IMG/VR virus record: IMGVR_UViG_3300028805_004235
Direction: 5' to 3' (one strand)
Length of the DNA stretch: 10,594 bases
Source: a virus
Part shown: positions 2,989 to 10,594 of the stretch, piece by piece
Layout: the number at the start of each line of letters is the position of its first letter
Position numbering within the stretch: position 1 is the stretch's first letter
The notes under the pieces: generated by a model
The model's database searches: none
Seen by the model: the letters and a program-made list of their open reading frames with translations, nothing else
Told to the model about the DNA's origin: nothing
Position numbers and translations under genes: made by a program

Positions 2989-5913
2989 ATGCCAGGAATA
3001 CTTAATAACTTATATCCGCCTATTTTTAAAAAGTCATATATTCCTGCTTTTGTTATTTCGGGAGATAAAAAATAGTGTAAAATTCCTTTCACTCTTTCAA
3101 TTTATAATTCTATTAAAGATGAAGGAGGAGATATAAATAAAAAAGCTGTTCAGGTAACAGTTCAAAATCAAAGAACAAATCAAAGTTCTTTAAGTAAAAA
3201 ATTATATCCAAGTGGAGTAAAAATTACTGAGTTACAATCAGATGAGAATGGAGAATATTTTATTCTTATTTCTGATAGTGATATTGATAAAGGTTTTCAA
3301 TATAATGAATTTTATAAAGTTCAACTTAGATTTACTGCTTCTGGATGTACAGCACCTGATCCCGTAAAAAAAGAAATTAAAGATAAAAATGGAAATATTG
3401 TAGAAGAATATTATGCTCAACAACTTGATGAATGGTTAAATTCATCTTTATTATATTTTTCAGAATGGTCTTCTGTATTATTAATAAAACCTATTAGTGA
3501 AGTAAAATTTTCATCAAGATATTTTGATTTTGATGAAAATACTACTACTGTGCTTACTTCTAATAATATTGTCATTGCAGGAGCACTAAAACAAAGCAAT
3601 ATTAATGATAAAGAAGGATATAGAAGTTATAGGATTTATATTTATGATATTAATGGTTTCCTCTTAGAAGATAGCGGAGACCAATATTTTCAAAATGCTA
3701 ATGAAATTCAATATAATTGTAAATATGATTTTCAATCGGGGTAGTCTTATAATATAATATTACAAGTGTTGACAGAAAATTTATATTTATATCAAGCTAT
3801 AAAAAAAGTTGATATAAATTATGTTCCTTATTCAAGTTTTTAGACAAATATTTCCGCAGAAATAGATAATAAAAGAGGGTGTGCTGTAATAACTTTAAAA
3901 AATCAGACTTTAACAATGTTGGGAACTAACATTGTTATTCGTAGAACATCTAGTAAAGATAATTTTAAGTATTGGGAAGATGTATATACGACTTTAATTC
4001 CTCCAAATTCTTTTTTAGATTTTACTTGGGAAGATTATACTATAGAAAGCGGTGTATGGTATAAATATAGTGTAGTAAAAAGAAACAAAGAGAATTATCG
4101 TTCTCTTCCTATTGAAATTAGAAACCCTATAATGGGTGATTTTGAGGAAATATTTTTAACTACAAAAGATAATCAGTTAAAGATAAAGTTTGACCCGCAA
4201 ATTAGCAATTATTCAAGAGTGGTTTCAGAATCATTAACTGAAACTATTGGTTCTAGGTATCCTTTTATTAGAAGAAATGGAAGAGTAAATTATCGAACTT
4301 TTACTATTTCAGGAACAATTTCTTATTTAATGGATATTCAAAGTAATTTAATGCATTCGTCTCAAACGGATTTATATGGAGATTTAGCAACTTTATATAA
4401 AGATTATAATACAAACAATAATATAACTTATTTTAATGATTTTATTCAAGAAAAAAATTTTAGATAGAAAGTTTTAGATTTTCTTTATGAAAATAATGTA
4501 AAATTATATAAATCTGCCACTTAGGGAAATATTTTAGTTAAATTAATGAATATTACTTTAACTCCTAATAATTCTTTAGGACGTAGAATATATACATTTA
4601 ATTGTACTGCTTATGAAGTAGATGAATTTAATTATGATAATTGTATAAAATATGGTATACAAGAAGAGGGTGAATATATTTAGGAAGAAAAAGTTTTAAT
4701 AGAAAAGTTTGGTCAAGTAATAATCCCTTTACAAGATAGATATTGGAATAATCAATAGCCAATAAATCTAAAAGATAATATATATTTTGGAAAATAGGAT
4801 ATTTTAACTAAATATATTAAACCTAAATATCAAAGTTTAGAAACTGATATGGTAGAAATTAATGTTAATAATATTTCTTATTTAAGAATAGCTTTAACCA
4901 GTGATCCTTATCCTATTGCATATGGAGGTCTTTCAGGAACAGAGCCAATTCCTTCTCCTAATAATGCTGTATGTATAGGTCATATTGTATATATAAATGG
5001 TCAAGCTATTGTAATTGGAAAACATGGTGTTTATGAATTAACTGATACAGATACTAAAATTACTTCTTTAAGTTTTGCTTCTGAAAAAGAACAGGGTGAA
5101 ATTAATTTTGAAGTACAAATAGAACAAACAGAAAAGGTAGAAAGACAAGTTGTGTAGGAATACAAAGCTTTTTCAAGAATTGGTCAAATTTGGGGTAGTT
5201 TTAATATTAAAAATATTTTAAATGAAAATATTTGTGATGATATATTTAAAAAATATGCTTTTGAAGATTCTGCTTCTCATTATAAACAAGAAGCGCAAAG
5301 AATATTTGGTTTACGTATTCAGGCGCAACCAGGTACTATTGTATATGTAAGAGAAAATCAAGATACCGCATATTAGAAGCATATTTTAAATGAAACTGGT
5401 TTATTATAGTTTTATGACGAAGAAACTAACATTGTAGGATTACGTTTTGGAGGTCCTGAAATTCAATTTATTTAGGTTGAAAATACAGATATGGGATTAA
5501 AAAACGATGAATTTTATGATACTAAAACGGTTGCTACATTAGATATGATAAAAAATCCAAAAAATAATTATGTTTATCATATACCTCCTTTTAATAGAGA
5601 CCAAAAAATGTTAATTCTTGGAAAAGGAGATGTTATAAAAGAAAATAATGAATCTACAACAGAATCTATAATTTATAATCGTTATGTATGGAGAGCAACA
5701 GAAGATAAAGTTAAATGGTTGGGACAAGAATAGAAAACTGCAGAATTACAATATGATTCTTTTGAAAGTTATATTTTTCATGATGGAGTTTGGTATCCTT
5801 TTTCTAAAGAGGAAAATGAAAATAATACTGTTATTACTATTCAACTTCAAAGTGTTGATGCTATTATAGATTATCAATGTAGTATTTTAGGAGAGAGGTA
5901 TGTATCAGGATGA
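2989..5913 (+). CDS. Large (974-aa) TAG-recoded protein, probably a virion structural or tail-type protein of unknown family. It has 13 in-frame TAG codons and a TGA stop.
   Basis: A single frame (position mod 3 = 1) is open from ATG 2989 to TGA 5911-5913 apart from in-frame TAGs at 3073, 3742, 3841, 4465, 4522, 4681, 4756, 4795, 5155, 5374, 5407, 5473 and 5731. There is no TAA or TGA in 975 codons of roughly 25%-GC DNA. Track ORFs 3550-3744, 3916-4467, 4849-5157 and 5491-5733 are consecutive TAG-bounded pieces of this one frame. The translation is protein-like throughout (e.g. ...NFKYWEDVYTTLIPPNSFLDFTWEDYTIESGVWYKYSVVKRNKENYRSLPIEIRNPIMGDFEEIFLTTKDNQLKIKFDPQISNYSRVVSESLTETIGSRYPFIRRNGRVNYRTFTISGTISY...). 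Confidence 0.75.
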
Positions 5914-8974: not shown

Positions 8975-10594
8975 GAAGAGGTTATGATTATAATAACAAT
9001 AGTAATAGAAAATTATCTTATTATAAACCTTATAAAATAGAAAATGGAGAAGAGGTTGAAGTTTCATTAGAAGATGGTTTAAGTTAGAGTTAGATTAAAG
9101 AAGCATTAAATGGTGCTTATTATAAATTTTCTTCTCCAGATAATGGAGGCGGAATTGATGCAGGAGGAGCAATCTATATTGCAACAATAGTAGGCCCATA
9201 GGGAAAGTCTCCGATATTATAGCTTGGTTCATATGGGAGTATTCCTGAAGGTTCAGGAACAGGTTTTTCTGATGGGGAAATGTCTGTAACTAATGAAAGT
9301 TTAATTCCTGGAATATAGAGAAATGAAAATGGGGAAATTAAAAAAAATAATGTAATTAAATGGAGAACTTATTCTACTACAGATGAACAACGAGATCAGG
9401 GTGTTGCAAAAATTGGTTTGCAAATTCCTTATCCTGTAATAGAACCGGGAGAATTAAATACAAATCCTTATACTGAAACTGATAATATTAAAATAACAGA
9501 AGATGAAACTAGTAAAAGTGACCCTTTCTATTATAAATGGAATTTTACTATTCCCGCCGGTAAACATGGTACATAGATAACTCAAATTAAAAAAATTAGA
9601 GTAGATGAAATTAGTTCTTATGAAACCGTTTATGGTATAGTTGGAGAAAATGAAGTAGCATTAACAAATACAAATTTTAGATAGGCACCTTTTTATTTGG
9701 AAGAAAATGAAAGTTTTTTAGCATATAAATTAGTTTCACATGAAAATGAAACACCTGAAGAAAAATTATATTTTATAGGAAAATATAAGCAAATAGATTC
9801 TATAAAATATAATGAAGAAGATGGTAGGTTATTTGTTCTTTATACAGATAATTATAATGGTAATAATATATTAGAAGAGCAAGAAATAGGAGAGTTCCCT
9901 CGTTTAATAGAATTATCTTACAATAATAATAATGATGGAATTTTAAAAATTGAATTTAATGCAGGAAAACAAGTATCAGTTCCTATTAAATATATAGATA
10001 AAATTAAATTAAAAGAAAATGGACTTTTAACATATAAAACAAATATAGAAGATAATGGTGCTTTAGATGCGGAAGGTCATTAGTTAGGAAAGATAAAATG
10101 GATTCAAGATATTAGTTATGACCAAGAATCTAACAAAATTATTATTACTTATAATACTACTTCTTCATAGAACGATACTGTTATTAATGATACTGATGAA
10201 ATTGAAGTTCCTTTTGTTGCGAATCTTAAAGTATCTTAGGACGGTACAATTTGGATTAAATATAATGGTAATGATACAGAATGGATACCAATGTCAACAG
10301 AGTTATCTGAGGAATCTGATGTTGCAGGGTCTATAAAATGGATAGATAATATACAATATGATGTTGATAACGATCAAATGCTCATTTATTATAATAATGA
10401 TGAAATTGATTCTGAAAGTCAAAAAATACCTGGTACAGTTATCAATAATCCTTTTAATAAAATTAGAAGCGTTAATTTTTATACTAATTTATAGGAAATT
10501 GACGAAGAATATGAATCAGGTCCTGGCTTTTTAATAAGTTATGGAGATGGAACCACAGAATCAATTCCTTTTTCTGGCGGACGATTAATTGACA
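8962..10594 (+). CDS. Large TAG-recoded protein (frame 1), truncated at the window end, possibly tail-fiber-like (GP(TAG)G collagen-like motif, Asn/Gly-rich). It has no ATG of its own, so it is probably fused to the 8789 start through a -1 frame change.
   Basis: The frame (position mod 3 = 1) opens right after TAA 8959-8961 and runs to the window end with only TAG interruptions (e.g. 9199-9201, 10081-10083, 10492-10494). Track ORFs 9697-10083 and 10291-10494 are fragments. Translation: ...RRGYDYNNNSNRKLSYYKPYKIENGEEVEVSLEDGLS(TAG)S(TAG)IKEALNGAYYKFSSPDNGGGIDAGGAIYIATIVGP(TAG)GKSPIL... The first in-frame ATG is about 320 nt downstream, so an independent start is unlikely. Confidence 0.7.

Follow-up and report, generated by a model that had tools for sequence, protein, structure and literature searches.

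A 10,594-base stretch of viral DNA, the IMG/VR record IMGVR_UViG_3300028805_004235 (the window, to which all coordinates refer unless a relative is named), bears on its plus strand a module of four tail genes, g1 to g4, that together hold 48 in-frame amber (TAG) codons, with in-frame TAA or TGA present only as three terminal stops. We are fairly sure that the window belongs to a tailed phage of ~140 kb, from low-GC Firmicutes of the gut or rumen, that reads UAG as glutamate (Glu) in its late genes with the aid of a suppressor tRNA probably derived from tRNA-Glu. Beyond this one genome, we lean towards the view that the window exemplifies an undescribed phage code, common in a large family of ~140-kb phages of Bacilli-like hosts in gut and rumen, in which UAG is decoded as Glu by a CUA-anticodon suppressor of tRNA-Glu descent, while sister lineages read UAG as glutamine (Gln) and identity features of the suppressor set the meaning; those features would be the first base pair, the length of the D-loop and the length of the variable loop. 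In phages whose code differs from that of the host, Borges et al. report only TAG to Gln and TGA to tryptophan (Trp), and the isotypes assigned by prediction to 180 phage suppressor tRNAs in another survey are Gln, Trp, isoleucine and tyrosine, with none for Glu. Our literature searches on stop-to-glutamate reassignment, incomplete in coverage so that prior work is possible, returned ciliates and related eukaryotes only; hence we found no earlier description of UAG as Glu in a phage, and amber recoding of late genes with a tRNA(CUA) is as such already well known.

Reading frames were called with TAA and TGA as the sole stops, and so read, the right-hand 7.6 kb of the window (GC ~25%, against 36-40% in the left 2.2 kb) resolves into four consecutive genes on the plus strand, each with an ATG preceded by a Shine-Dalgarno-like motif (AGGAGG, GGAGAGAGG, AGGAG and GGAAGGGAG, in gene order). 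The first, g1 (2989..5913, 974 residues), contains 13 TAGs (at 3073, 3742, 3841, 4465, 4522, 4681, 4756, 4795, 5155, 5374, 5407, 5473 and 5731) and ends in a TGA at 5911, on which g2 starts through an ATGA overlap. Spanning 5910..8036 and 708 residues, g2 has 19 TAGs (5934, 6036, 6183, 6408, 6450, 6474, 6594, 6597, 6744 and 6996, followed by 7050, 7179, 7251, 7473, 7590, 7638, 7662, 7734 and 7788) and a TAA stop at 8034. The shorter g3 (8051..8782, 243 residues) has four (8099, 8288, 8651 and 8768) and ends in a TAA at 8780 with a TAG directly after it. The tail-fibre-like g4 (8789..10594) runs off the window end, leaving the N-terminal 602 of its ~837 residues, and carries 12 TAGs, one before (8903) and 11 after (9085, 9091, 9199, 9220, 9316, 9574, 9682, 10081, 10168, 10237 and 10492) a break in its frame at ~8965-8968. 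In the two remaining frames of this stretch, TAA or TGA occurs 159 and 235 times per ~2,535 codons, and the chance of 1,925 codons free of both, given the base composition, is ~1.5e-65. An earlier, sequence-only reading of this DNA had proposed that TAG is a sense codon across the module, that TAA and TGA still act as stops and that gene starts are of the bacterial type. Re-inspection of g1 to g4 bore this out, finding terminal stops only, and agreed with its coordinates and its TAG counts (13, 19, 4 and at least 8, the last now 12); the TAA at 8959-8961, where it saw the g4 frame switch, does belong to the second frame and closely precedes the break. TAG alone is thus reassigned, since UGA still terminates g1 and UAA still terminates g2 and g3.

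That TAG is a sense codon in this module is virtually certain. Comparison with phage structural proteins, a check that the sequence-only reading had proposed, gave tail-module matches to PHROG profiles that bridge the TAGs, phrog_30026 covering g1 residues 313-559 and phrog_32343 covering g2 residues 9-412, and full-length homologs in the standard code align end to end across TAG positions. Among annotated phages, megablast with the window in full gave no match, and tblastn yielded full-length g2 homologs, including those of phAss-1 and of MT835469, an unannotated 176-kb faecal phage whose homologous open reading frames (ORFs) are free of TAG. Scans of IMG/VR, of JGI and ENA metagenomes and of GTDB genomes gathered more than 100 related loci (numbered with the prefix L where they must be told apart). 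Among 86 g2 homologs checked, 55 have at least two in-frame TAGs, 30 have none and one has a single TAG; the interrupted pattern recurs across samples, in more than 50 contigs independent of one another. Because the profile matches and full-length homologs run across the TAGs, the TAG-bounded pieces are not separate proteins, an outcome that would have undone the proposal of a sense codon. Stop usage has shifted as well: the long ORFs of standard-code relatives end in TAG in 23/154 cases and in TGA in 9/154, and in relatives that read TAG as Glu 52/304 end in TGA, as expected if TGA took over from TAG stops.

The residue for which TAG stands was sought in alignments made at the DNA level. In pairwise codon-aware alignments of g1 to g4 with six relatives, the TAGs of the window pair with Glu 44 times, with aspartate (Asp) 11, Gln 8 and serine 8; the GAA codons of the window pair with Glu 84 times, Asp 18, lysine 16 and Gln 9, and its CAA codons with Gln 56 and Glu 11. 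The pairing of TAG resembles that of GAA and is unlike that of CAA, which supports Glu. A DNA-derived g2 alignment of 72 unique sequences, 54 recoded and 17 in the standard code, allowed columns to be defined as conserved when one residue occurs in at least 80% of the standard-code genomes. At Glu-conserved columns, TAG makes up 176 of 764 codons in the recoded genomes (23%), as against 20 of 511 (3.9%) at Gln-conserved columns, at most 1% at Asp-conserved columns, a single TAG at leucine columns and none at columns of lysine, asparagine, serine, threonine, Trp or tyrosine; moreover, most of the TAGs at Gln columns fall in two columns where the recoded clade mostly carries GAA. When each genome is scored by its own g2, Glu fits best in 50 of the 54 recoded ones, two have too few TAGs and two fit Gln. 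These last two, L085 (ERZ808258) and L086 (ERZ808292 NODE-5, 141 kb), are 98% identical to each other and place no TAG at Glu columns and four or five at Gln columns. They serve as an internal control, their return of Gln showing that the method separates Glu from Gln, and with them one phage family seems to hold two amber reassignments, since this pair uses TAG at Gln columns and never at Glu columns.

For the window itself, five of the g2 TAGs fall at Glu-conserved columns, and g2 alone scores 10.5 for Glu, 5.9 for Asp and ~5.6 for Gln; across the 38 usable TAG columns of g1 to g4, each counted as a single effective observation, Glu scores 15.3 nats, Asp 7.8 and Gln 7.2. All of the sense codons run as controls (GAA, GAG, CAA, GAT, AAA, AAT, ACT and TCT) were assigned correctly, to Glu, Glu, Gln, Asp, lysine, asparagine, threonine and serine. 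Individual columns can be telling: the TAG at g1 residue 512 faces Glu in 18/18 standard-code relatives, that at g3 residue 201 in 9/9 and that at g4 residue 145 in 9/10, and at g1 residue 493 the relatives have Glu 9, lysine 5 and Asp 4. Taken together, the alignments and the tRNA features described below make it very likely that TAG means Glu in this window. The sequence-only reading had opted for Gln (translation table 15), a choice that the TAG columns do not uphold: the residue aligned to TAG in homologs, which it had named as the check to make, is Glu rather than Gln. Nor does the hint it drew from g4 survive, where GP(TAG)GKSP was read as a collagen-like GPQG; at that position, residue 138, standard-code relatives have alanine nine times and serine once. 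In a neighbour-joining tree of g2, a single-gene tree and as such indicative only, the window falls in a large clade of Glu-type genomes, adjacent to one genome that uses the standard code; Glu-type genomes form another clade in a different part of the tree, and L085 and L086, of the Gln type, branch from within the standard-code genomes.

Public protein records require care here. The database relatives of g2 (P0001-P0120) carry Q at every position where the underlying DNA has TAG, and columns that are purely Glu in standard-code genomes look mixed in them, e.g. 74 E and 46 Q. This Q is a systematic mistranslation by gene callers that offer only table 15, and because the proteins are stored in this form they are unusable for residue inference, for which DNA-level loci were used instead.

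A second line of evidence is furnished by an enzyme active site. Close relatives of the window encode, on the minus-strand block of genes, an endolysin with GH25 and CHAP domains and 7-8 TAGs. The catalytic DxE motif of GH25 is DFE in window-type endolysins, DF(TAG) in L023 and DI(TAG) in L090, the latter independently of the Glu type by its g2. We take the Glu of this motif to be E94 of Cpl-1, the pneumococcal phage lysozyme used as reference sequence, whose numbering of D10, D92 and E94 agrees by count. Judged by motif, then, TAG appears to occupy the catalytic Glu of GH25 in both relatives, a position where glutamine is expected to inactivate the enzyme.

The tRNA that would read these codons was found outside the window. 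ARAGORN detected no CUA tRNA within ~10 kb of the module in about 100 relatives' loci, some with partial arrays devoid of CUA; several relatives do have tRNA arrays upstream of g1 that are cut by the locus ends, and extension of one such array through IMG/VR exposed a tRNA(CUA). A pattern taken from its D-loop, anticodon loop and T-loop, scanned over IMG/VR, matched 43 stretches, one of them on IMGVR_UViG_3300021399_000006, a 142-kb contig with a window-type module (g2 ~65% identical to that of the window, the minus-strand gene m1 described below 96% identical, and the same gene order). Endolysin, topoisomerase and ligase genes lie one step leftwards along this contig, and no tRNAs were found there. 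A CUA suppressor, for which the sequence-only reading had proposed a search, is absent from the window and present on this contig of the same clade, as well as in two other clade members. This tRNA (L123 1605-1677, minus strand, 56 bits on the Rfam tRNA model) has a 3-bp D-stem, the D-loop AAGCGGTCTAA and a 4-nt variable loop. In length its D-loop equals that of phage tRNA-Glu genes, two bases more than in phage tRNA-Gln genes; its variable loop of 4 nt is again that of tRNA-Glu, as against 5 or more in tRNA-Gln genes; and it begins with C1-G72 and G2.U71, as does the phage tRNA-Glu(CUC) of L112 and L116, with no U1-A72 pair. In L111 and L130 the homologous suppressors have three stems altered by compensatory changes, and in L112, L116 and L133 a CUA tRNA directly adjoins tRNA-Glu(UUC) and tRNA-Glu(CUC). 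We consider that a phage tRNA-Glu(CUA) probably decodes TAG in this particular genome too.

Pyrrolysine decoding was rejected on tRNA architecture and codon positions, with no search aimed at pyl genes: the suppressor folds as a canonical cloverleaf whose D-loop has 11 nt and whose anticodon stem has 5 bp, and the TAGs lie at Glu positions. A tRNA-Pyl has a short D-loop, a 3-nt variable loop and a 6-bp anticodon stem, and the ARAGORN label "tRNA-Pyl" reflects the CUA anticodon alone. Odd elements in the arrays of relatives (L074 1877-1950, L074 780-842 and L087 1753-1813) comprise a 74-nt "tRNA-Tyr(GUA)" lacking a long variable arm and truncated elements that have GAA in the anticodon loop but lack an acceptor stem; examined as decoders of UAG, the "tRNA-Tyr" and the acceptor-less elements were likewise rejected. 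Other features of the arrays were noted in passing. A full-length ROOL RNA (RF03087, 339 bits) lies within the tRNA array of a Glu-type relative (L090 181-807), and similar long structured spacers separate tRNAs in L087 (40-680) and L111. A distinct and highly conserved tRNA(CUA), TGCTCCATGGTGTAGCGGTAGCACGGGAGGCTCTAACCCTCCAGG..., which begins with a U1.G72 wobble pair, occurs in unrelated IMG/VR contigs of 27-105 kb (L124, L127-L129, L134, L138, L142 and L144).

By what route would such a tRNA deliver Glu? Most likely, UAG would be decoded by a phage-encoded amber suppressor that arose from tRNA-Glu and resides in the phage tRNA array, its CUA anticodon being one base away from the CUC of tRNA-Glu. 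Relatives of the window are binned with, or resemble, low-GC Bacilli, Erysipelotrichaceae and Anaeroplasmatales, and their lysis genes are of the Gram-positive type. Hosts of the class Bacilli normally have a non-discriminating glutamyl-tRNA synthetase (GluRS) that is tolerant at anticodon position 36, and generally lack a glutaminyl-tRNA synthetase (GlnRS); their amidotransferase GatCAB recognises U1-A72, the main determinant, and a short D-loop. The host GluRS would then charge the suppressor with Glu, and the Glu-tRNA(CUA), with no U1-A72 and a longer, Glu-type D-loop, would escape GatCAB and so supply Glu, not Gln. A suppressor with U1-A72 in the same type of host, one that makes Gln-tRNA by way of GluRS and GatCAB, would end up carrying Gln, which would explain both meanings of UAG in a single phage family. 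This rationale built on GluRS and GatCAB is offered as a tentative one.

Related contigs of ~116-148 kb in GTDB genomes (L158-L187) occur in bins assigned to Bacilli, Erysipelotrichaceae, Anaeroplasmatales, Clostridia and Lachnospiraceae, as well as to Methanobrevibacter and Bacteroides, with several such contigs in some bins; binning in metagenome-assembled genomes is a weak hint of the host. Phage contigs in such genomes may also give false "new genetic code" signals in surveys. A 2026 preprint describes signals of "TAA/TAG to glutamate" in archaeal assemblies and ascribes them to contamination, and the relative in a Methanobrevibacter bin may be compared with these.

Several points weigh against a Glu reading and should be set out together. 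Many TAG columns are variable, which makes the alignment evidence statistical. In work on E. coli, tRNAs with a CUA anticodon tend to be charged by GlnRS. The 10.6-kb window has no tRNA by ARAGORN, and its suppressor is thus surmised from a relative ~65% identical in g2. By overall similarity, moreover, the suppressors fall only in a joint Glu/Gln group, L130 having a tRNA-Gln as its best match, and because of this ambiguity the Glu call rests on the structural features and the alignments. Finally, the distant relative phAss-1 was interpreted by its authors as TAG=Gln (PMC10607447), and its tRNA(CUA), with U1-A72, G73 and a 5-nt variable loop, is in line with that assignment. The rival reading is table 15, with UAG read as Gln through a Gln-type suppressor as in crAss-like, Lak and phAss-1 phages; in its favour, no other amber reassignment has to date been reported for phages with a code unlike that of the host. 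A Gln pattern does exist within the family, in L085 and L086, and public databases translate the close relatives of the window with Q. Yet for the window we judge Gln improbable: its TAG columns favour Glu by ~8 nats, TAG in the family is far commoner at Glu-conserved than at Gln-conserved columns (23% versus 3.9%), relatives encode the catalytic GH25 Glu by TAG, the same-clade suppressor has D-loop and variable-loop lengths of the Glu type and no U1-A72, and the Q residues of the databases originate from a gene caller acting on TAG. 

Ambiguous or host-dependent decoding, in which Glu is partly converted by GatCAB or GlnRS takes part in charging so that a mixture of Glu and Gln results, is less probable again, and very unlikely. 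It would sit well with a suppressor whose overall similarity does not decide between Glu and Gln, with a family that includes both Glu-type and Gln-type genomes, and with TAGs being commonest at surface-like variable columns, where the two residues are often interchangeable, but TAG at the GH25 catalytic Glu and at invariant Glu columns speaks for a reliable delivery of Glu, and the suppressor lacks U1-A72. That the genes are degraded or misassembled, with TAGs as true stops, has a negligible probability and can be taken as already refuted, for although g4 does hold one real frame break, the ~2,500 codons contain 48 TAGs without any internal TAA or TGA, homology is full-length across the TAGs, the pattern recurs in over 50 independent contigs and TAG positions are selected for Glu columns.

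With UAG taken as Glu, the window can be placed among known systems. It shares with the code-15 phages (crAss-like phages, Lak megaphages and the clades of Borges et al.) the use of UAG as a sense codon with UAA and UGA as stops, the recoding of late structural and lysis genes with early genes avoiding TAG, and probably a tRNA(CUA) carried in an array; for crAss-like phages, TAG=Gln has been validated by proteomics (PMC9523058). It differs in using Glu rather than Gln and, as seen in the same-clade relative, in having a suppressor of tRNA-Glu architecture. Two hallmarks of code 15 are that TAG matches Gln in standard-code homologs and that the suppressor has Gln identity (U1-A72, G73 and a short D-loop); here TAG matches Glu, and the suppressor, judged on that relative, is of another make. 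On both counts, the window represents an amber-recoded phage that does not use code 15.

The closest parallel among named phages is phAss-1 (proposed Phassvirus, OQ749652, filed at NCBI under "Caudoviricetes code 15 clade"), a gut phage of ~136 kb with a predicted host in Bacillota, g1 and g2 homologs in the same order, many late ORFs with TAG and a large tRNA array that includes a tRNA(CUA). It is distant, its g2 being 32.5% identical by tblastn and 34% by protein alignment, and gene order around the module differs; only 6-12 of its TAG columns are usable in the g1 and g2 alignments, too thin a basis for either meaning. The Enterococcus phages EF1, EF5, VRE9 and H1 (~140 kb) also have adjacent homologs of g1 (phrog_30026) and g2 (phrog_32343) in the tail module; their code is the standard one, their identity is ~27% and their alignment to g2 does not extend past its first 412 residues. 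A syntenic tail module of phrog_30026 followed by phrog_32343 is thus common to the window and to this group of ~140-kb phages typified by phAss-1 and EF1. The codes of some eukaryotes, in peritrich ciliates (table 30), Blastocrithidia (table 31) and some phyllopharyngean ciliates, resemble the proposed one in that a cognate tRNA-Glu, altered in its anticodon, inserts Glu at UAG. Those are cellular nuclear codes, and tables 30 and 31 reassign UAA together with UAG, whereas here UAA is the main stop (it ends g2, g3 and the minus-strand gene m2 and never occurs in frame), starts are of the Shine-Dalgarno type and only part of the viral genes is recoded.

The products of g1 to g4 are tail-tip or baseplate proteins. 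The g1 product, matched by phrog_30026, is encoded directly upstream of the baseplate hub g2, whose own PHROG matches are phrog_32343 and phrog_1887, the latter described as "tail protein"; searches of PDB sequences with g1 and g2 returned no match. The fold of g2 was approached through an AlphaFold2 model of P0002, a database protein 96% identical to it, at a moderate mean pLDDT of 63. Foldseek with this model gave matches of probability 1.0 to the phi812 baseplate, the T5 tail tip, T4 gp27, a tail-associated lysin (Tal) and VgrG, with TM-scores that are low, in keeping with a multi-domain model. The model thus suggests that g2 is a baseplate hub or tail-associated protein of the gp27/Tal/VgrG kind.

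Homologs of g4 are single ORFs of 829-864 residues in L004, L005, L009, L155 and L156. In L155, a Logan contig 96% identical to the window over 7.8 kb, g4 is one ORF of 837 residues, and at the site of the break the window reads GGAAAATTTTT where L155 reads GGAAAAATTTTT, i.e. a run of four As (8965..8968, plus strand) in place of five. The frame break is thus one missing A in a homopolymer, from an assembly error or a strain mutation, and no recoding signal. A programmed frameshift at 8965-8972 was rejected since near-identical and more distant relatives all have g4 as one continuous ORF, so that the frame switch in the sequence-only reading is real as a break in this contig and is not a feature of the code.

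On the left of the window, the minus strand holds two genes. The first gene of a TAG-free block, m2 (2226..2828), encodes 200 residues of unassigned function, has no in-frame TAG, ends in TAA and has homologs in the same position in relatives. The second, m1 (1..2184, running off the left end), lies outside the recoded module and also lacks TAG; its product of at least 728 residues resembles the major vault protein (MVP), with Pfam matches to the MVP shoulder domain (1.5e-21), the vault repeat and SPFH/Band 7. No match in PHROG, PADLOC or NCBIfam was found for m1, nor in PADLOC or NCBIfam for m2. Base composition and a foreign codon usage set m1 apart: its GC content is 37-40% against ~25% next door, and it has 23 CAG to one CAA where CAA is the preferred codon of all its neighbours. 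Relatives with tail genes of no more than 65-73% identity share m1 at 96-97%, and the closest relatives, L156 and L009, lack it; m1 thus looks like an accessory gene that has spread recently.

Between the TAG-free block and the TAG module lies a divergent intergenic region (2829..2988), which holds the AGGAGG of g1 and, upstream of m2, a near-consensus promoter of the sigma-70 type on the minus strand (2891 to 2863, TTGACC-17-TATAAT, 11/12). This promoter is no more than a match to the consensus, of which shuffled controls contain at least as many, and no comparably strong sigma-70 match faces g1 in the region; a promoter facing the TAG-free block is a hint that fits transcription of that block by the host polymerase. 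Together, the 928 codons of m1 and m2 include no TAG, whereas the tail module has 48. In close relatives TAG occurs in the endolysin and structural genes and in none of the small genes, the RNA ligase or the holin of the minus-strand block. The proposal in the sequence-only reading that recoding marks late genes accords with structural genes that carry TAG and two minus-strand genes that do not. The TAG-free minus-strand block presumably comprises early genes, which, lacking TAG, are translatable by an unmodified host and would be translated first, with the host code as it stands; the TAG-rich late genes would be completed only once the suppressor is present. By analogy with other recoded phages, we infer that the suppressor may have a role in the timing of early and late expression.

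If UAG is indeed read as Glu, phages can install more codes than TAG to Gln and TGA to Trp, and the idea that only GlnRS and tryptophanyl-tRNA synthetase (TrpRS) can be co-opted is weakened. Every public table-15 translation of these phages would then be wrong at 2-3% of residues, catalytic glutamates included, given that gene callers limited to tables 4, 11 and 15 put Q for E and hit conserved acidic and catalytic residues such as those of the GH25 DxE motif; errors of this kind can lead to false results when structures are predicted, enzymes annotated or proteomes searched. With Glu-type, Gln-type and standard-code phages in one family, these genomes constitute a natural system for learning how tRNA identity elements set the meaning of a codon, and the family is a source of candidate natural Glu-inserting amber suppressors for Gram-positive hosts.

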